Origin: Candidatus Latescibacterota bacterium
GTDB lineage: Bacteria; Latescibacterota; UBA2968
Direction of reading: 5' to 3'
NCBI GenBank assembly: GCA_038279365.1
Contig: JAYODI010000053.1
Coordinates: 1-41,683 of the forward strand
DNA length: 41,683 nucleotides
Each line of letters starts with the position of its first letter. Within the stretch, counting starts at the first letter, position 1. Both the position numbers and the translations under genes were made by a program. The notes under the pieces were generated by a model. It did no database searches and was not told the origin of the DNA. It saw nothing but the letters and a program-made list of their open reading frames with translations. Below, piece by piece: positions 31,704-41,683 of the stretch.

Positions 31704-33224
31704 TTATTGGCGTTTTATCCACAAGACCCAATCGCCCATATCGGGTGCGGTGAGGGTTTGGTTGTTACCCGGTATTTCTAATGGGGTGTGCCAGAGCCCT
31801 GTGGTGGGGCAATACCATCGGGCCGTATATTGTCCTTCGGGCAGTTGAATGGTGATGTTGGGAATGGTTTCACCCACGTCATCGGTTTCGGGTGTGTCTC
31901 CCGATGGGTTGGCGAGGTATATCAGGTAGGTATCGTTGGTGTGGGCGCATTTGTATAACAAGGGTGTGTTGCCCACACGTGCATCGTTGGGCATGAAGTT
32001 GACAAGTGTTAGGCCGGTGTCGTTGAAGAATGTGCGAATGTGGATGAGATCATTTGCCCCTATGAGTTTGCCTGCACGGGCGGCTTCGTAATACCCTTGC
32101 ATGCCTTTGACGTTGGTGTCATAGGCTTCGTGTGTCGAAAGACCACCATAAGTTGTGTGCCCCCCCGAGAGCAAGCTGGCCCAAAAGAGACGGCGAAAGA
32201 AATAGCGTGGGTGTTGGGGCGCACGATAGTGTTCATAGCGGTCTTCGTCATTGATGACGGGGGCCGTTGTTTTTTGGCGGTAGTCGAGAATGATTTGGCC
32301 GTGTACTTGATCGAGGTCTTCGAGGGTGACCATGTCAGACCATTCGGCATTGGGAAATGAATACCCTTTAAAACGACATTGATGGTTGGTGAGCAAGGTG
32401 CCCCACGGCTCACGGGCTCTCATATCACGGGCGATTTGGTGAATGGTTTTTTCATGCACTTTTCGACCGGATAAGTCTTGGTTGTCTGGCACAATTTCAC
32501 GGTCATTAGAGACACACCAAATAACGTTGGGCAAGGCCGAAAAGCGTGCTTGTGCATAACGAGCGATCCATTGGGAAAGGGGATCGCTGTTGTAGCGCAA
32601 CAACTCGGCGGTGTCTTCACCGTAGGGAATGAGCTTGAAGATGATGTGAGGATGGTGATTGAGTGCGTAGATAAGTCGACGATCTATTTCTTGCCAGTAG
32701 GGCAAGTTGAGCGAGGTGCGCTCGGGGTTGAATAAGGCTTGGACGTCGCTGCGGCCTCGGCAAAACCAGGTGCGAATTTTGGTGAATCCAGCAGCCGATG
32801 CTTGGTCAATGTAGGCTTGCCACTCGGGTTCGGTGTCGGTGACGTAACGATACCCTGTGTCACCGATGTGCAAAAACCAGTCGCCATTTTGATAGGCAAA
32901 TTGATAAGGGTCTTGAGGGTGAATGGTCAGTTGACCATTGAGGTTGGATGGGATAACGCTAAAGTTGCCCGTTTGGGTGTTGAGGTCACGCAGATTCGAT
33001 GCGGTTGTCCAGGTCCAGGTGCCTACTTGATCGGCATAGGCACGTGCGCTGTAGATGTTTTTACCGGTATAAAAACCTTCAGTGGTGACGGTTGTGTTGT
33101 CTGGGCGGGTGAAGGTGATTGTGAAGTCTGTGTCGAATATGGGGTGATTGTCTGACTCGGCAGTGAGGGTGATTTCATAGACGCCGTAATGAGGTACCTG
33201 ATTCGGGTTTTGAGAGAGATTCAT
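31704..33224 (-). CDS. DUF5060/DUF4038 (apiosidase-like) glycoside hydrolase with C-terminal beta domain
   Basis: EGFY.G...Y.AR, F.HIGDT.Y, GFTKIR, ARFSALPNVIW, GGHTTYG, ARWYCPTTG, DWVLWI. Confidence 0.75.
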   Translation of the reverse strand: MNLSQNPNQVPHYGVYEITLTAESDNHPIFDTDFTITFTRPDNTTVTTEGFYTGKNIYSARAYADQVGTWTWTTASNLRDLNTQTGNFSVIPSNLNGQLTIHPQDPYQFAYQNGDWFLHIGDTGYRYVTDTEPEWQAYIDQASAAGFTKIRTWFCRGRSDVQALFNPERTSLNLPYWQEIDRRLIYALNHHPHIIFKLIPYGEDTAELLRYNSDPLSQWIARYAQARFSALPNVIWCVSNDREIVPDNQDLSGRKVHEKTIHQIARDMRAREPWGTLLTNHQCRFKGYSFPNAEWSDMVTLEDLDQVHGQIILDYRQKTTAPVINDEDRYEHYRAPQHPRYFFRRLFWASLLSGGHTTYGGLSTHEAYDTNVKGMQGYYEAARAGKLIGANDLIHIRTFFNDTGLTLVNFMPNDARVGNTPLLYKCAHTNDTYLIYLANPSGDTPETDDVGETIPNITIQLPEGQYTARWYCPTTGLWHTPLEIPGNNQTLTAPDMGDWVLWIKRQ

Positions 33225-33251
33225 TGGAGACCTTTTTGGATGTGAAGTCGA

Positions 33252-34232
33252 TCAGGCTTGGCCTGGGCCTTTATAGGGGCGACCAAAAGGCAAACCAAAG
33301 GGTTCGCAGAAGGGCCGAAATGGAACCAATGCGGCGATGTCATCGAGGCGGTTTAAAATGTCTGTGGGAAGAGGGCCTTTTTCGATGGCGGCAATGTTGG
33401 ACTCAACTTCTTGTGTTGAGCGCGCCCCCATGAGGGTGGTATGGATATGTGGGTTTGAAATAACAAAGCGGATGGCGCATTCGGCGATGGGCATGTTGAT
33501 TTCGTCGAGGAAGGCATAGAGGGCGCGATATTGGTTGCGACGAGGTGGGCTTAACCAACGGGCATTGTCGAGCAAATCGTCATAACGACGGGCCAGTGCG
33601 CCTTGTTGGAGGGGGGAGCCTACAATGATGCCCATGCCTTGTTCTGTGGCTGCAGGGAGGACTTCGTGCTCGGCTTCTCGCCAGAGTAGGCTGTAGTTAA
33701 AGGCGGTGAGAACAACATCAAATTTGCCGGTGCGAATGAGGTCTGTCATTTCGTAGGCGGTGGTGCCACCAATGCCTATGGCCGAGATGGTGCCGTCTTT
33801 TTTTAAGTCTTGTAAGAGGTCCAGCGCAGGGCCATTGAAGTGCTCGGGGTCTGTCCACCAGTCATATTGACGGGGGCGATCTGGTTCGTGAATGATAAAG
33901 ATGTCGATATGGTCGCGGTTTAAGAGGCGCAGACTTTCTTCAACGGATTGTTCGAGGCACGTGCGATTTTGGGGTTCAAAAGGTTGTGGCCGGCCACCAA
34001 GTTTGGTGGAAAGTATAAGGGGGGCATGGATATCTTGGAGGATTTGGCCAAGCACTTTTTCGCTGTCCATATAGTTGGGTGCCGTGTCGGCATAGGTGAC
34101 ACCCAATTCAATGGCGCGGTGAACGGCTTGGTGGGCCTGTTTAAATTCGGCATTTTTGGTGGCAATAAAAAGCCCACCCATACCCAAGCGGCTCACTTCG
34201 AGATTGGTTTTACCGAGTTGGCGTTTCTCCAT
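33252..34232 (-). CDS. Aldo/keto reductase
   Basis: LGKTNLEVSRLGMG, DTAPNY, STK, SLRLL..DHID...IH, SPLQQG. Confidence 0.92.
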   Translation of the reverse strand: MEKRQLGKTNLEVSRLGMGGLFIATKNAEFKQAHQAVHRAIELGVTYADTAPNYMDSEKVLGQILQDIHAPLILSTKLGGRPQPFEPQNRTCLEQSVEESLRLLNRDHIDIFIIHEPDRPRQYDWWTDPEHFNGPALDLLQDLKKDGTISAIGIGGTTAYEMTDLIRTGKFDVVLTAFNYSLLWREAEHEVLPAATEQGMGIIVGSPLQQGALARRYDDLLDNARWLSPPRRNQYRALYAFLDEINMPIAECAIRFVISNPHIHTTLMGARSTQEVESNIAAIEKGPLPTDILNRLDDIAALVPFRPFCEPFGLPFGRPYKGPGQA

Positions 34233-34235
34233 GGT

Positions 34236-36044
34236 TTACTCCGTGATGGGTGTGAAACTCACCACCAGACTAAAGCGCAAGATGTCTCCAATATGGACAA
34301 CGAGTTTTTTGATGTTGCTGTTGTCGGCTTGGTCTGGCTTGGGTGATGTGGAAAGGGGTTCGGCATCCATCACATCAAATTCTGCCAAAGAGGGGCCGTC
34401 TTCTATTTTGATTTGCAATTTTTTACCATTTTGAGTGAGGATGGCTTTTCTAAATGTGAAGTCAATTTCAATGTCTGCGTGGGTGTGTAAAAACCACCAA
34501 AAATCTGTATGGTCGCTGTTTTCGATTTCATCTGTGACAACCACTCTTTGTCGTTCTTGCATTTCGAAGGTACGAATGACGCGGTGTGATGTTTCCGAAT
34601 AGGCATCTGAAAGATCGACCACGGCAGTTGCATTTTCTTTGGATGAACGAAAGGAGATGATGGGGGCTGTTGCGTCTAATTTTTGCCCCGCATTTTCATT
34701 GGGATTAAAAAGGGGCACATTGTGGCCTTCGGCACGAATGCGGTAAAACTCCCATTTTTCGCGTTTGTTGCGGTGGCGTTGATAAGTTTCAGAGTCATTG
34801 CCACAGTCAATGATCCAACGTTCACCGAGGGCTTCAAGAATAAAAGAACCCAAATCGACGTGGCGATGCATGCCTAAGTTGGCATTGTTGCCTCCTTGAA
34901 TACCCACAGACAGTGCGTTGGGATCTGTCCAAGAACTGCGCATAGAAGCGACATTGGCCTCGCGGAAGTGTTTGTCGAGTTTGAGTGTTTTTGGGTCAAA
35001 GTCTTTGCCTTTTTCGTCAAACCATAAAAAGTCGAGTACTTTGGCATCTTGATGCCCGCCCGCCAATTCGCTGTATCGAAACCAACTGTATTCTGGCTTT
35101 TTATATTTTTTCCCCATCCAAAAATGCATGGGGGTGCCCATACGGCGCAGACCGCAATCTGAAAAGTTATACGATTGACGTGTGGCACCTGATATATACA
35201 TTTGATATTGGCCACTTTCTTTGAAGCCAGGAATCTTAGAAAGGCCAAAGTCTGTGCCCAATGCGGTTTCGAGCGATGAGAGATAGAGCAGGTTGTAGCG
35301 CGAACCATAATCCCAATAGGTGACACCTTCTGTACCTGCGCCATCAGGGGCATAGTGTTTCATGGGCAAAGGAATGCTTTGAATGGCATGGTGTAAGATG
35401 GTTTTGGCCAAATCGGGGTCTTGATCGGCAATGACGAGTGCGCCCATGCTGAGACCACTGTTGCAAACTTGGTTCCAGTTGTTTTGGTTTAAATCCCAGC
35501 GATGGCCCACATTGCCATTGTAGACGTCCAAACCGGGCTTAAGACCCTTTTCGATAATGGCGTTTTGCATGGTTTCTTTTTGGGCGTCTGACCATTGATC
35601 GTTTAACCAATCGAGGCTCATGGCCACAGCATAGGTCATCTCAGCGGTGTCGAGAAAGTGCGACGGGTTCCAGTCTTGAAAGTTGCAGGCGGCCTCTATT
35701 TCGGCCCATGTGCGATCTACATATTGATCGCCACCTTCCATGAGGTGGATAAACATGAGTGCTCGCACACGTTCTTTTACCCTGCGGCTTACCGATAACA
35801 ATCGACGTCCATCGGGTATTTCATAGTGCGAAGGTGCTTCGGTTAAAATGGCATCGGTTTCGTTTTTAAGGTGTTCATACCATTTTGGCGCGTGGGGATC
35901 TGTGTTTAATATCTTTTGAACATTGTCAACCGTATTTTCGTTAATGATAATTCGGGGATGACCACTTTTGAGGGTGGCCAACATTTCTTCCCCAGTGGGT
36001 GCTTGTTCTGAGGGTTTACCATTTATGGTATACTGCCAAGGCAT
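34236..36044 (-). CDS. Heparinase II/III-family protein (no signal peptide)
   Basis: HPRI, DWNPSHFLDTAEM, NNWNQVCN, PDGAGTEGVTYW.Y, HRHVDLGSF, EGHN. Confidence 0.85.
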   Translation of the reverse strand: MPWQYTINGKPSEQAPTGEEMLATLKSGHPRIIINENTVDNVQKILNTDPHAPKWYEHLKNETDAILTEAPSHYEIPDGRRLLSVSRRVKERVRALMFIHLMEGGDQYVDRTWAEIEAACNFQDWNPSHFLDTAEMTYAVAMSLDWLNDQWSDAQKETMQNAIIEKGLKPGLDVYNGNVGHRWDLNQNNWNQVCNSGLSMGALVIADQDPDLAKTILHHAIQSIPLPMKHYAPDGAGTEGVTYWDYGSRYNLLYLSSLETALGTDFGLSKIPGFKESGQYQMYISGATRQSYNFSDCGLRRMGTPMHFWMGKKYKKPEYSWFRYSELAGGHQDAKVLDFLWFDEKGKDFDPKTLKLDKHFREANVASMRSSWTDPNALSVGIQGGNNANLGMHRHVDLGSFILEALGERWIIDCGNDSETYQRHRNKREKWEFYRIRAEGHNVPLFNPNENAGQKLDATAPIISFRSSKENATAVVDLSDAYSETSHRVIRTFEMQERQRVVVTDEIENSDHTDFWWFLHTHADIEIDFTFRKAILTQNGKKLQIKIEDGPSLAEFDVMDAEPLSTSPKPDQADNSNIKKLVVHIGDILRFSLVVSFTPITE

Positions 36045-36102
36045 GGGTTATAACTCCTGACGGGTTTTGCAAAGAAATAAAGGGTACTGGTTTTTGATGC
36101 GT

Positions 36103-37923
36103 TTAATTGTTTTGTGGTGTCAATTTGACTTTGATCGTAAGGTCTGTAACGCCTGTTAGATGAATGGCTAATTTGCGTCGGTTTTTGTTGTCGGCTTGTT
36201 CTGGCGTTGGGGATGTGGGCAGTGGTTTGGCATTCATCACTGAAAATGTGGCGTTGGCCGGTGATATAATTTCTGCTGTTAAGGTTTTGCCATTTTGGGT
36301 CAATATGGCAGTTGATCCATTGGGTGTCACATCGGCTTCTGTGTGCATAAACCAATAGAGTTCGGATGGCGATTTGGCTTGAATATCATCTGTGATGATG
36401 ATGTGTTGGCGGTCTATCATTTCAAAGGTGCGTTTTGCTTGTTTTACATGGTCGGTATAAACATCGGTTAGGTCAAGTGTTGTCAGCGCTTTGTTGGGTG
36501 TCGATTCAAATGTGGTCACTGGACATTTGGCTTTTGGGTTTTGGTCGGGGCCATTTTGTGGGTTAAATACCAGTGTGTTGTGACCTTCGGCACGAATGCG
36601 GTAAAATTCCCATCGTTGGCGTTTGTTGCGGTGGCGTTGGTAGGTTTCTCTTTCAGTACCCGAGTCGATTGCCCAGCGTTCTCCTAAGGCTTCGAAGATG
36701 AAGGTGCCTTGGTCGAGGTGTCGGTGTTGCCCCAAGTTGAGGTTGCCACCGGCTTGGATGCCAAGGGCAAGTGCATTGGGGTCTGTCCAAGAACTGCGCA
36801 TAGAGGTGACATCGGCTTTGCGAAAGTGTTTGTCGAGTGGGGTGGCAGATGGGTCAAAAGTTGTGGCGCTGTTGTCAAACCAGAGCAAATCAAGAATACT
36901 ACCTCGGCCGTATTGGCGCAGGGTGTCGTATCGGAACCATGAGTAATGCGGTTGGTTGTATTGGTGCCCCATCCAAAAGTGCATAGGTGTGGAAACGCGT
37001 GTATAACCACAATCGGCAAAGTTGAAGGACATCCGCTGGGCACCTGAGATATAGATGTGATAGGCACCACTTTCTTTAAATCCTGAAAGATCGGATAGAC
37101 CAAAATCTGTACCCAAAGCCGTGTTGAGTGAGGAGAGGTAGAGGATGTTGTAACGCGATCCATAAGACCAATAGGTGACGCCTTCGACGCCTGCACCATC
37201 GGGTGCATAAAAGGTCATGGCAAGAGGGATGCTTTTAAGGCCAGAATGAAGAATTTCGGTGGCCAATTCGGGAATGTGTTCGGCAATGGCCAGTGCACCC
37301 ATACCCATACCGCCATTGCACACTTGGTTCCAGTTGTTGTGGTTTTGCACCCACCAATTGCCTTTGCGATAGATTTCAAGGCCTGGTTTGAGGCCTTTTT
37401 CGACAATGGCTTCTTGCATGATACGGCGTTGTTCGTCGGTCCACTGATCATATAACCAATCATAGGCCGTTGCAAAAGCATAGGTCATTTCGGCGGTGTC
37501 GAGAAAGTGAGGGGGGTTCCAGTCTTTAAATGCAGCTGCGGCTTCAATTTCTGCCCAAACGCGATCCACATATTGTTGTCCACCATCTAAGAGGTAGATA
37601 AGTGCAAGGGTGCGCACCCGTTCTTTCACGCGGCGGCTAACGGAAAGCAAACGTCGTCCGTCGGGAATTTCGTATATGGAGGGTTTTTGCGTGAGGTATT
37701 GGTCGGCTTGGCGTTTGACACGGCGATAAATATCAGCGGCTACGCTGTCTTGGGCAATTATGGTTTTGATACGGGGAATGGTTTGGCTGTCGATGATCAA
37801 ACGAGGATGATCTTTTTTGAGGGTTTTGAGGATCTCATTGGGATGAGGAGGAGTAAATTCGGCAGCGTGAATGGAGGTGCCGAGCATCAATAGGATTGAG
37901 AATGTGAGGATCATTTTTTTCAT
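36103..37923 (-). CDS. Heparinase II/III-family protein (Sec signal peptide)
   Basis: MKK plus hydrophobic core ending IHA-A; same motifs as the downstream paralog. Confidence 0.85.
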   Translation of the reverse strand: MKKMILTFSILLMLGTSIHAAEFTPPHPNEILKTLKKDHPRLIIDSQTIPRIKTIIAQDSVAADIYRRVKRQADQYLTQKPSIYEIPDGRRLLSVSRRVKERVRTLALIYLLDGGQQYVDRVWAEIEAAAAFKDWNPPHFLDTAEMTYAFATAYDWLYDQWTDEQRRIMQEAIVEKGLKPGLEIYRKGNWWVQNHNNWNQVCNGGMGMGALAIAEHIPELATEILHSGLKSIPLAMTFYAPDGAGVEGVTYWSYGSRYNILYLSSLNTALGTDFGLSDLSGFKESGAYHIYISGAQRMSFNFADCGYTRVSTPMHFWMGHQYNQPHYSWFRYDTLRQYGRGSILDLLWFDNSATTFDPSATPLDKHFRKADVTSMRSSWTDPNALALGIQAGGNLNLGQHRHLDQGTFIFEALGERWAIDSGTERETYQRHRNKRQRWEFYRIRAEGHNTLVFNPQNGPDQNPKAKCPVTTFESTPNKALTTLDLTDVYTDHVKQAKRTFEMIDRQHIIITDDIQAKSPSELYWFMHTEADVTPNGSTAILTQNGKTLTAEIISPANATFSVMNAKPLPTSPTPEQADNKNRRKLAIHLTGVTDLTIKVKLTPQNN

Positions 37924-40222: not shown

Positions 40223-40296
40223 GTGTCCATATTGCAAGCCAAATCCGAAAATGGTGTTTGGCTTGTGACTTGCAGACCTGTGGCCTGTGACTGCTT

Positions 40297-41619
40297 TTAT
40301 GGTGGGTCAACAGGCACTTTTTGTTTTTTGGGAATGAGGGGATCGTAGGTAAATCCTTTGGTGCCTTTTTTAAATTCTGCACGGGCTTTTTGCATGGTGC
40401 TTTTGTTGAGAATCAGGTCTATGGCCGATCCGGCAAATACTTTGGCGGTTTGCAAGATGGCTCGGTCGGCAAAGGGCATCACGGCTTGTGCAGTGGTGTC
40501 GCGATGGTGGGCTGGGGTGCCTTTGGTATAACAGGCCATTGTGAATCGGCCCATGGGTGCCAGCCATGAGACATTGTCTTCGTCTGTGGAACCCCGACCT
40601 TGTGATCCTTTGCTTTTAGACACGGTTGCATCATATTCACCCTCGTAACCCAATTCTTGTACGCGTTCTTTGTCTTTTTTACTCGCTTTGGGTGGGCCAA
40701 AGAGTTCTAAATTTTGCCGCACGGTTGACCACATGGTGTCGTTGGGTAAACGCGGGTAGACCGCTGTGATGCGATGGGTTTTCATGGTGGTGTCGGTGGC
40801 AATGGCGGCTCCTTCGGCACATTGGGTGAGGCGTTTGCGCAGGTCATCGACGGCTTCGCGGTCTTTGCCACGTACGTAATACCAGACTTTGGCATAAGCG
40901 GGTACCACGTTGGGTGCATCACCGCCATCGCGGATGACGCAGTGGATGCGTGAATTTTCGGGAATGTGTTCGCGCAAATAGTTGGCGGCCACGTCCATGA
41001 GCATCACACCATCTAAGGCACTTCGGCCCATGTGTGCGCTGGCACCGTGGGCTGTTTTACCGAAAAATTCGAAGACGAGGGAATCCATGGAGGAACCGCC
41101 ATAGTTGCCAGCACCAGTGCTTGAGCCAGGGTGCCAAGCCAATACGGCATCGAGGTCCCGAAAGCCCCCATCGCGGGCCATGTAAACTTTGCCTGCGAGG
41201 GTTTCTTCTGCGGGGCACCCGTAATAAACAATTTTGCCAGGCGTGTTCAGTGTTTCAAGAATGTTTTTGGCAGCGACCGCACCTGCGGCCGGGGCAACGC
41301 CCAAGAGGTTATGGCCTCAGCCGTGGCCCCATGTGCCTTCACCTGCCCCACAGTTGGGTAAGGCATCGTATTCGCCCAACATCCCAATGACGGGTTTGCC
41401 TTTGCCATAAGTGGCGCGAAAGGCTGTGGGAATGTTTTTGAATGGGAATTCAATGGTGAAGCCATTTTGCTCCAAATAGCTGGCAAGGGCTTGTGATGAT
41501 TCGTGTTCCTGAAAGGGGCGCTCGGCCCAGTTGTGAATGCGTCGTGAGAGGTCAAAGGCTGTTTTGGCTTGTTCTTGAACCGCTTTTTCGACGCGGTTCT
41601 TTTTGGTTTTTGCGTTCAT
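40297..41619 (-). CDS. M20 amidohydrolase (AbgB-like), 440 aa with in-frame TGA read as probable selenocysteine
   Basis: ORFs 41317-41619 and 40297-41304 are in one frame: GEYDALP...GHG-TGA-GHNLLG, PAEE, AWHP, G..AH, GRSALD, GSTD, PAHH; AGGAGG SD. Confidence 0.85.
41267..41316 (-). promoter_or_regulatory. Candidate bacterial SECIS element
   Basis: GGCCGC-AGGT-GCGGTC hairpin (41290-41275), apical loop 32 nt after the TGA, possible lower stem TTGG/CCAA. Confidence 0.6.
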
Positions 41620-41683
41620 ACACTATCCTCCTAATAGGTGTAATCTGCACCATCTCGGCTGCGTTGACATGAGGCTTCTTGCT

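Follow-up and report, generated by a model that had tools for sequence, protein, structure and literature searches.

A gene from an uncultured sediment bacterium of the Candidatus Latescibacterota is predicted to encode an M20D-family amidohydrolase in which a UGA codon at the metal-ligand cysteine position is almost certainly read, as judged from comparative sequence analysis, as selenocysteine (Sec). We consider it highly probable that the full proposal holds, namely an M20D enzyme with a SECIS-directed Sec101 whose selenolate would replace the metal-bound thiolate. The gene lies in a stretch of 41,683 nt, which is referred to below as the window. The first-pass annotation of this DNA had suggested a Sec-recoded metallohydrolase, and this suggestion is supported by the presence of the Sec machinery, the conservation of the TGA, the alternation of Sec and Cys at this position and an RNA element downstream of the codon.

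Direct reading of the minus strand places the ATG of the frame at 41619-41617 and its TAA at 40299-40297 (Table 1). Re-translation of the 440 codons recovered a single in-frame stop, the TGA at 41319-41317, which is codon 101, with zero frameshifts and zero further stops; the initial observation that both halves are in frame without any other lesion is thereby borne out, as is the location of the TGA. Its context, GGC CAC GGC TGA GGC CAT AAC CTC TTG GGC, translates as GHG*GHNLLG, and the peptide around the predicted Sec would read GTWGHG-U-GHNLLGVAPAAGAVAAK. As had been anticipated, the public annotation treats the TGA as a stop: the GenBank and IMG records contain a protein cut to 335 aa, which is a mis-annotated fragment, and clusters of such shortened sequences in the public records have 29 and 217 members. 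The gene neighborhood offers no hint of the substrate, and the context differs between this contig, where a PhyH-like dioxygenase gene lies downstream, and L080, where a zinc-type alcohol dehydrogenase and an esterase are found downstream and an AAA protein upstream. No tRNA genes were found within the window. Contigs from the metatranscriptome libraries X15 and X16 cover parts of the gene (40256-40588, 40961-41213, 40748-40928, 41092-41238 and 41298-41448), with DNA carry-over being possible in these libraries, and none of them reaches 31 nt beyond the TGA in both directions.

Table 1. Positions of the gene, its predicted functional residues and the downstream hairpins in the window
Feature	Position	Strand	Remarks
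M20D amidohydrolase gene (predicted)	40297..41619	minus	440 codons + TAA; one UGA, the proposed Sec (U101)
Shine-Dalgarno-like AGGAGG	41627..41632	minus	7 nt 5' of the ATG; direct reading
UGA codon 101, proposed Sec codon	41317..41319	minus	Cys position of the GH(G/A)CGHN metal-ligand motif
C135-P-A-E138-E139 motif	41203..41217	minus	columns invariant in the 35-homologue alignment
His163 (WHP, codons 162-164), presumed metal ligand	41131..41133	minus	invariant; role from family knowledge
His371-His372, C-terminal presumed metal ligand	40504..40509	minus	both invariant; role inferred
Hairpin 1, GGGC-GUU-GCCC	41292..41302	minus	+17 to +27 from the U of UGA; RNAfold
Hairpin 2, CGGCCGC-AGGU-GCGGUCG	41274..41291	minus	+28 to +45; proposed SelB-binding SECIS; RNAfold

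Sequence profiles and a structure model concur in identifying the predicted product as an M20D-family amidohydrolase. A protein profile search recovered TIGR01891 with 215.7 bits (cut-off 153.75), and at the genome level the same profile scored 209 bits with one TGA inside the matched region. The PF07687 M20_dimer domain corresponds to residues 180-271 and, together with the AlphaFold model (pLDDT 92.7), points to a two-domain architecture comprising a catalytic domain and an inserted dimerization domain. Foldseek searches with this model retrieved the Staphylococcus aureus HmrA (3RAM; E-value 1.6e-34; TM 0.82 when query-normalized and 0.91 when target-normalized) and the Corynebacterium enzyme CsAga (6SLF; E-value about 1e-22). 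The product would be a cytoplasmic dinuclear metallo-amidohydrolase of the dipeptidase or N-acyl-amino-acid hydrolase type.

Alignment to four solved homologues, HmrA, human PM20D2, Arabidopsis ILL2 and an AbgB-like protein, places U101 opposite the Cys of their GHACGHN/HACGH motifs, in agreement with the original assignment of the TGA to the Cys of the family motif. All 35 aligned sequences have H99, C/U101, H103, E138, E139, H163, H371 and H372 in common, and the PAEE (codons 136-139), WHP (162-164) and C-terminal HH (371-372) motifs, which had been noted as intact, are also strictly conserved. We take E138 and E139 to be the general-base and metal-ligand glutamates of M20 enzymes, and His163 is presumably a metal ligand, as in the rest of this family. 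Given the alignment of U101 to the Cys of the solved homologues, and a single statement in a review on CsAga, a related M20D enzyme, Sec101 is likewise a candidate metal ligand, a role carried over by homology at 27-28% identity. In the predicted enzyme, the selenolate would substitute for the thiolate of the Cys-type M20D enzymes, which bridges their two metal ions or serves as a ligand to them.

Sec could alternatively be inserted at this position and yet play a mainly redox or regulatory role, for example by forming a selenenylsulfide with Cys135 or Cys90 that switches the metal site. Both these cysteines are invariant in all 35 homologues, Cys135 directly preceding the PAEE motif and Cys90 lying within a 7-residue insertion without a counterpart in HmrA or PM20D2, and the majority of known selenoproteins are redox-active according to review text. 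However, Cys90 and Cys135 are just as invariant in the Cys forms as in the Sec forms and are hence not specific to the latter, and the intactness of the remaining metal ligands argues for a working metal site. We therefore regard a primarily redox function as unlikely and favor Sec101 as a metal ligand, with a possible advantage in the lower pKa of the selenolate, in the tuning of metal affinity or choice by a softer ligand, or in resistance to irreversible oxidation.

The search for selA, selB, selC and selD that had been recommended for this genome was successful: contig C34 carries selA (592 bits), selB (379 bits), selD (367 bits) and tRNA-Sec (68 bits) together, each scoring above its cut-off. 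The selD gene itself contains an in-frame TGA in the motif SCGGUASK, and an FdhA-like gene of the same genome has U in the motif AATUHAP. Across the phylum, selA was detected in 131 of the 168 genomes searched. It is present in 54 of the 55 genomes with the TGA form of the amidohydrolase, the sole miss being a 91%-complete MAG, while neither G059, the one Cys-form genome of the phylum, nor its genus mate yielded a selA match. In closed genomes, G027 among them, the amidohydrolase gene and selA reside on one chromosome. TGA is otherwise used as an ordinary stop, ending 3 of the 25 long open frames of the window, and no in-frame TGA was seen inside selA or selB. We propose that the SelA/SelB/SelD/tRNA-Sec system would recode UGA 101 to selenocysteine.

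The TGA is conserved to a striking degree among close orthologues. It occurs at codon 101 in all 49 orthologues of at least 68% identity recovered from 61 related genomes, and a survey of 168 Latescibacterota genomes found it in 55 of 56 matches, the lone exception being a 63%-identical Cys form in G059. All 55 distinct orthologous coding sequences, which span three GTDB families, have the TGA at the identical codon, and neither TAA nor TAG ever takes its place. The carriers are without exception MAGs of uncultured organisms, many closed chromosomes being among them, and independent DNA contigs from two studies retain the codon. Identities of 68-94% between the orthologues rule out that they are copies of one contaminating sequence. 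Homologues with TGA at this codon, which the first-pass annotation had suggested looking for, are hence the rule among the close orthologues, and it is the distant ones that have Cys. This division is also apparent on a wider scale: a collection of 185,579 species genomes yielded 80 loci, in which the codon is TGA in 32 cases, none below 70% identity, and TGC or TGT in 44, none above 62%, with four mis-registered by the script and hence in neither class. A set of 59 metagenome loci yielded 2 with TGA, 56 with Cys and 1 without a match; the best of the Cys-form DNAs in the metagenomes are 66-67% identical, and one metagenome scan did not retrieve the DNA of P0002 and P0003, which at 79-80% identity are the closest Cys forms. 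In the phylogenetic tree five Cys rows are nested inside the Sec clade, which requires at least three switches from Sec to Cys or from Cys to Sec. The ratio dN/dS is about 0.17 upstream and about 0.13 downstream of the TGA, and purifying selection acts on both halves of the gene. We also considered the terminal stops, which are TAA or TAG in 49 of 49 Sec-form genes and TGA in three Cys forms, and dropped them as a signal, because the long open frames of the window end in TAA, TAG and TGA 18, 4 and 3 times, respectively, and the orthologues are not independent.

Downstream of the TGA two adjacent hairpins are predicted. The first-pass annotation had described a GGCCGC-AGGT-GCGGTC hairpin (41290-41275) as the 3' signature of Sec recoding; this element was recovered, its loop beginning 32 nt past the A of the TGA, and RNAfold lengthens the stem to 7 bp (41291-41274), with an apical NGGY loop at 41284-41281. 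The stem of hairpin 1 is invariant in all 49 distinct sequences, and over both hairpins 99.8% of 539 cells are paired. Variation in individual pairs is limited, one pair being G-C in 34, G-U in 11, A-U in 3 and A.C in 1 of the sequences, and another C-G in 27 and U-G in 22. As the hairpin sequence is almost invariant, the covariation is weak, with 30 of 500 shuffles reaching the observed score and compensatory changes confined to one pair. Moreover, two Cys forms with the same Ala/Gly/Val-rich peptide (L160 and L162) retain on inspection 5-6 of the 7 pairs of hairpin 2, and other Cys forms likewise fold into GC-rich hairpins at the same place, suggesting that the hairpin potential is partly a by-product of the peptide. 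Thus, the conserved RNA element stands as part of the Sec signature, but the potential to form a hairpin does not by itself discriminate Sec from Cys forms.

The signal that does discriminate, and a real one, is that synonymous sites are frozen in the Sec forms. Synonymous diversity reaches the minimum of the entire gene 18-41 nt past the TGA, over the two hairpins: 11-codon windows starting at codons 104-108 have values of 0.17-0.18, the lowest of the gene, against a median of 0.49. Codons 107, 109, 111 and 114 are identical in all 55 coding sequences, whereas all four glycine codons occur at the flanking positions Gly98 and Gly102, and the freeze stands out despite the saturated dS between genera. 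In the Cys forms, by contrast, the synonymous sites of codons 107-115 are variable, with Gly107, for instance, encoded by GGC, GGT, GGG or GGA. We propose that the two conserved hairpins, 17-45 nt downstream, would constitute an in-frame bacterial SECIS that directs the recoding. GGU loops are also found after the TGA of the selD and FdhA-like genes of this genome; the loop of hairpin 2 at +35 is 12-14 nt farther from the UGA than those of selD (+23) and the FdhA-like gene (+21), and it is hairpin 1 that sits at the usual SECIS position. We nevertheless infer that SelB probably binds hairpin 2, which has the NGGY loop, instead of hairpin 1. At gathering thresholds, an Rfam scan gave 0 matches in the entire window; with E-values up to 10 the region 41180-41420 returned solely a chance-level match to c-di-GMP-I-GGC (10.9 bits versus 59), and the curated SECIS families in Rfam had zero matches to the region. 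RNAalifold also offers an alternative pairing that encloses the UGA, between the GGGG of codons 97-98 and a CCCC at +25 to +28, all columns of which are invariant.

These observations bear on three readings in which no selenium is incorporated. Suppression of the UGA by a near-cognate Trp or Cys tRNA, or by a tRNA-Sec loaded with Cys, could yield an ordinary enzyme with Cys or another residue at this position. Cys is indeed functional here in homologues up to 80% identical, the tree implies repeated exchange between the two states, and insertion of Cys at Sec codons can occur under selenium limitation in other systems. Selenium-free readthrough is nonetheless very unlikely, since TGA is a normal stop in this genome and is absent in-frame from selA and selB, the presence of the TGA follows that of selA, and the retention of both the TGA and a constrained RNA element through the history of three families fits only dedicated recoding.

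A split gene or programmed termination, in which an N-terminal protein of 100 residues and a C-terminal one of about 335 residues, begun at TTG codon 106, would be made and perhaps reassemble, draws on the TTG-initiated ORF of 335 codons in the window and on the C-terminal product that gene callers widely report, one cluster of 335-residue proteins having 217 members. We hold it to be highly improbable: codon 106 is TTG in 28 but CTG in 27 of the 55 Sec-form coding sequences, no other in-frame start is conserved between the TGA and Met147, and codon 106 lacks a ribosome-binding site, the sequence preceding it being coding (GGCCAUAACCUC). Such a break would also cut through the invariant H99-x-U/C101-x-H103 ligand motif, and leave unexplained both the frozen synonymous sites downstream and the exclusive use of TGA. 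Finally, a pseudogene or a sequencing or assembly error has a negligible chance of being correct, for while the TGA differs from the TGC/TGT of homologues by a single transition or transversion and is called a stop by public pipelines, it recurs in every distinct orthologue across three families and in many closed chromosomes as well as in independent contigs from two studies, with no second lesion and with low dN/dS on either side.

Sec recoding therefore remains our preferred interpretation, and the gene appears, from the sequence evidence, to define a real and undescribed selenoprotein family, with the qualification that deep-Sep, BSepDB or the supplementary tables of earlier selenoproteome studies may list an unnamed candidate. 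With regard to the question of a prior report, there are zero M20, peptidase or amidohydrolase entries among the 119 prokaryotic selenoprotein families in Table 1 of Zhang et al. 2026 (PMC13188914). If true, a Sec-ligated M20D hydrolase would extend the use of selenium to a Lewis-acid dinuclear site, given that the vast majority of known selenoproteins are oxidoreductases and that in FdhA and the [NiFeSe] hydrogenases the Sec-bound metal performs redox chemistry. We lean toward the view that this is the first hydrolytic dinuclear metalloenzyme with a genetically encoded selenolate bridging ligand, and that Sec was selected for tuning of the metal site rather than for redox activity. Such tuning might concern Lewis acidity or the choice of metal, for example of softer or scarcer ions where estuarine and marine sediments are sulfidic; a further option is that a thiolate-bridged site is shielded from damage by oxidation or sulfide. 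The repeated switching between Sec and Cys in one clade offers natural matched pairs, with identities of up to 80%, for comparing the contribution of selenium to a non-redox metal site, and a family model built with the Sec codon would mend hundreds of records and enlarge the Latescibacterota selenoproteome.

The closest comparison among solved structures is with the Cys-type M20D enzymes HmrA (3RAM), PM20D2 (7YH4), CsAga (6SLF), ILL2 (1XMB) and the AbgB-like protein (3IO1), all of which have the two-domain architecture in common with the Latescibacterota protein; the target-normalized TM of the model is highest to HmrA, followed by 0.85 to 7YH4 and 0.75-0.77 to 6SLF. The ligand pattern H-x-C-x-H ... 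PAEE ... H ... H is likewise common to all of them, with the difference that the ligand Cys is replaced by the UGA-encoded residue in the Latescibacterota gene. The latter further differs from these enzymes in the insertion (NCGAGEGTW) that harbors the invariant Cys just before the motif, and in an extra segment at about residues 300-345 that aligns poorly to HmrA. Much closer are the Cys-form orthologues of the PVC group and other uncultured bacteria, which are 46-80% identical over their full length, have the motif GHGCGHNLLG with TGC/TGT in place of TGA, and are annotated as amidohydrolase or aminobenzoyl-glutamate utilization protein B. The proposed selenoprotein matches the general pattern of the 119-family catalogue (PMC13188914), with one Sec, Cys homologues and Sec at a functional Cys. 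Review text describes Sec replacing Cys as a ligand of the catalytic metal in formate dehydrogenase FdhA (Mo/W) and in the [NiFeSe] hydrogenases (Ni), and in these enzymes an in-frame bacterial SECIS located downstream directs the recoding of the UGA, as proposed for the amidohydrolase. However, they are redox enzymes with a redox-active metal and folds unrelated to that of the amidohydrolase, whereas the latter would be a dinuclear hydrolase of the Zn/Mn/Co type, in which, unlike in FdhA and the [NiFeSe] hydrogenases, the ligand is not expected to undergo a change of redox state.

The minus-strand frame of the M20D amidohydrolase spans 440 codons and, as the first-pass annotation had claimed, a single TGA is the only stop within it, with both halves in frame and no other lesion. 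This TGA, codon 101, lies in the context GGC CAC GGC TGA GGC CAT AAC CTC TTG GGC (GHG*GHNLLG) and is a genuine, conserved Sec codon of an M20D metallo-amidohydrolase, at which Sec is predicted to be inserted. Standard ORF calling cuts the frame into a 100-codon ATG ORF and a 335-codon TTG ORF; the mis-calling expected of annotation pipelines is borne out by the public annotation, a 335-residue protein. There are clusters of 29 and 217 truncated public sequences of this kind, which GenBank and IMG call 'aminobenzoyl-glutamate utilization protein B', 'peptidase dimerization domain-containing protein' or 'amidohydrolase'.

Coordinates of the features discussed (window positions unless another contig is named)
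Feature	Position	Strand	Detail
M20D amidohydrolase frame	41619-40297	minus	ATG 41619-41617 to TAA 40299-40297
AGGAGG	7 nt 5' of ATG 41619-41617	minus	sequence reading
Cys90	41350-41352	minus
In-frame TGA, codon 101	41319-41317	minus
Cys135	41215-41217	minus
Hairpin 1	41302-41292	minus	GGGC-GTT-GCCC
Hairpin 2, as first proposed	41290-41275	minus	GGCCGC-AGGT-GCGGTC
Hairpin 2, lengthened by RNAfold	41291-41274	minus	7 bp
GGGG/CCCC pairing	about 41330-41327 with 41294-41291	minus	A1 alignment columns 2-5 with 38-41
Gene set near the amidohydrolase	31704-37923	minus	resembles polysaccharide degradation
ORF of 296 codons	38034-38924	plus	without Pfam match
Sec locus (G000; L001, L006, L014, L018)	C34:31069-36920		compact; all four genes in one orientation
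TGA of selD	C34:35780		SCGG-U-ASK
FdhA-like gene (L217)	C146:15022-17070
TGA of FdhA-like gene	C146:15442		QCAAT-U-HAPTV

Among 61 related genomes, this one included, 52 gave a match at E <= 1e-40; 49 of the matches contain exactly one TGA, all being at least 68% identical, and the three without TGA show 63%, 40% and 40% identity. The TGA occupies the identical codon of GHGUGHNLLG in all 49 extracted genes. A phylum-wide search (168 genomes, E <= 1e-120) recovered 56 matches, 55 of them with TGA and drawn from three GTDB families of one class; the sole other match, in G059, is 63% identical and reads GHGCGHN. In the comparison of homologues that the first-pass annotation had proposed, TGA at this codon is shared by all close orthologues. 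Scanning 185,579 species, each represented by one genome, returned 80 loci, with TGA in 32 (70-94% identity) and TGC/TGT in 44 (35-62%), four mis-registered loci being in neither count. The TGA carriers are in records labelled Candidatus Latescibacterota and, for a few, labelled by submitters as Gemmatimonadetes, Planctomycetota or 'bacterium'; at least one with such a deviating label (G011) belongs to family f1. A metagenome scan of 59 loci gave two with TGA, 56 with Cys and one with no match, and the distinct Sec-form coding sequences total 55. Positions 41317-41319 are unchanged in DNA contigs of two further studies (X1 and X6), of which X6 represents a variant strain (20 differences over 563 nt).

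The two called ORFs could be read as a split gene, and codon 106 is indeed TTG in 28 of the 55 sequences; it is CTG in the other 27, and the first near-universal in-frame ATG/GTG/TTG 3' of the TGA is Met147 (54/55), past the PAEE motif. A split gene would therefore be without a conserved start after the TGA, and the break would divide the metal-ligand motif. Both halves around the TGA are under selection: in six representatives from different genera dN was 0.12-0.35 and dS above 0.65 or saturated, and the median dN/dS, from the 8 of 15 pairs per half for which dS was computable, was 0.17 before the TGA (codons 1-100) and 0.13 after it (codons 102-440). A lesion is ruled out by the conservation of TGA at the same codon across orthologues.

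A quick FastTree phylogeny without bootstraps of 139 proteins (55 Sec, 84 Cys; column 101 masked), which took in the listed proteins up to P0070 and loci of at least 45% identity, gathered all Sec rows in a single group of 60 rows with a local support of 86. Nested in this group are five metagenomic Cys rows (P0002/P0003, at 79-80% identity, P0004, and P0009/P0011), and at least four Sec/Cys state changes are needed on the tree, three of them forced by well-supported branches. Alternation between Sec and Cys is typical of selenoprotein families.

A check for the Sec machinery found four genes on contig C34: selA (592 bits), a full-length selB (379 bits), selD (367 bits) and tRNA-Sec (68 bits). 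The selD gene has its own in-frame TGA, with a hairpin, GAUCCGGC-GGU-GCUGGAUC, beginning 12 nt past the UGA, and an FdhA-like molybdopterin oxidoreductase gene on contig C146 has an in-frame TGA with the hairpin GUGGCC-GGUCU-GGUCAC 12 nt past it; the organism thus uses Sec in other genes as well. Since its TIGR01553 score is below the cut-off, the FdhA-like protein may be something other than a true formate dehydrogenase. With selA above the profile cut-off in 131 of 168 genomes, Sec use is widespread across the uncultured phylum Latescibacterota; families f5, f6, f12 and f14 gave no selA by this cut-off (0/17 genomes). Of the 55 TGA-form genomes, 54 have selA and the remaining one (G020) is a MAG of 430 contigs that is 91% complete; no selA match was found in G059, the only Cys-form phylum genome (86% complete), or its genus mate G055. 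The window is a whole contig (C18) of a 6.03 Mb MAG of 199 contigs, with 98.5% completeness and 7.4% contamination; the worry of contamination is answered by closed chromosomes, such as that of G027, which carry the amidohydrolase and selA on one molecule. Outside Sec codons TGA is a normal, though rare, stop, ending three of the 25 open frames in the window that are 250 codons or longer (TAA 18, TAG 4).

The hairpin claimed downstream of the UGA was recovered, and RNAfold lengthens it (hairpin 2) and places a second small one (hairpin 1) directly before it. Synonymous diversity across the 55 Sec-form coding sequences, computed per codon in 11-codon windows, reaches its gene-wide minimum in windows starting at codons 104-108 (0.17-0.18 vs a gene median of 0.49). 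Codons 107 (GGC), 109 (GCC), 111 (GCC) and 114 (GCG) are the same in all 55, and 113 (GGT), 110 (CCG) and 108 (GTT) in 54, 51 and 50 respectively; at Gly98 and Gly102 all four Gly codons are in use. Across 49 distinct 78-nt segments the stem of hairpin 1 never varies, its loop being GUU or GUA (ACA once), and 99.8% of hairpin-2 cells are paired, one pair appearing as G-C 34, G-U 11, A-U 3 and A.C 1 times and another as C-G 27 and U-G 22. This covariation is statistically weak, the observed score being reached by 30 of 500 shuffles. The hairpin-2 loop is AGGU or GGGU (GGGC once), and because its GGU is shared with the selD and FdhA-like loops, hairpin 2 would be the SelB contact. Counting against this, its loop lies at +35, compared with +23 in selD and +21 in the FdhA-like gene of the same genome, and hairpin 1 occupies the position at which theirs begin. 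By inspection, the Cys forms L160 and L162, which share the peptide GVAPAVGAV with the Sec forms, retain 5-6 of the 7 hairpin-2 pairs and deviate at those synonymous sites frozen in Sec forms, and more distant Cys forms also fold here into GC-rich hairpins, unrelated ones; the RNA element may derive from a hairpin already favoured by the peptide's codons. RNAalifold prefers a long-range pairing of GGGG (codons Trp97-Gly98) with a downstream CCCC, all columns of which are invariant; it would compete with hairpin 1 and put the UGA inside a larger structure.

The M20D selenoprotein family is not described in the main texts searched. A review of the prokaryotic selenoproteome (2026; PMC13188914) has no M20 peptidase or amidohydrolase family among the 119 of its Table 1, and none of the terms amidohydrolase, peptidase, M20 or hydrolase occurs in its text, or in the main text of deep-Sep (PMC12013277), of BSepDB (PMC13326102) or of the preprint 'Eight unexpected selenoprotein families'. 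Full-text searches for an M20/amidohydrolase or Latescibacter selenoprotein returned nothing relevant, though supplementary tables could list an unnamed candidate.

The downstream neighbour here is a PhyH-like dioxygenase, and a relative has an AAA protein upstream and, on the downstream side, an esterase and a zinc-type dehydrogenase; no common neighbourhood, and no pointer to the substrate, emerged from these two genomes. Two proteins of the gene set at 31704-37923 are heparinase II/III-like, one of them carrying DUF4962; the set further includes an aldo/keto reductase and an apiosidase-like glycosidase that has DUF5060.

The readthrough product matches NCBIfam TIGR01891 'amidohydrolase' (215.7 bits; cut-off 153.75) and includes the M20 dimerisation domain. 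Read directly, the translation lacks a hydrophobic segment at its N terminus, which makes a cytoplasmic location probable. By sequence the nearest solved structures are S. aureus HmrA (3RAM, E 6.6e-45) and human PM20D2 (7YH4, E 3e-39), with weaker matches to 4EWT, Arabidopsis ILL2 (1XMB) and the AbgB-like protein 3IO1. An AlphaFold model from 35 homologues (mean pLDDT 92.7) gives TM values (query-/target-normalised) of 0.82/0.91 against 3RAM, about 0.78/0.85 against PM20D2 and about 0.68-0.70/0.74-0.77 against CsAga (6SLF), an acylglutamine aminoacylase. Invariant in the 35-sequence alignment are H99, C/U101, H103, E138, E139, H163, H371 and H372. Cys90 and Cys135 are likewise invariant (35/35); Cys135 is immediately N-terminal to PAEE, and Cys90 is part of a 7-residue insertion (NCGAGEGTW) that shortly precedes the ligand motif and is absent from HmrA and PM20D2. 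Each may be a further ligand, or a partner for residue 101.

Sec would be inserted through the usual bacterial recoding mechanism; the unusual point is that the predicted Sec position is the ligand bridging a dinuclear hydrolytic metal site, where Sec would coordinate metal and presumably bring some benefit. Opposite codon 101, HmrA and PM20D2 have the Cys of GHACGHN, and 3IO1 and ILL2 that of HACGH; we take this Cys to be a metal ligand in M20D structures, ILL2 among them.
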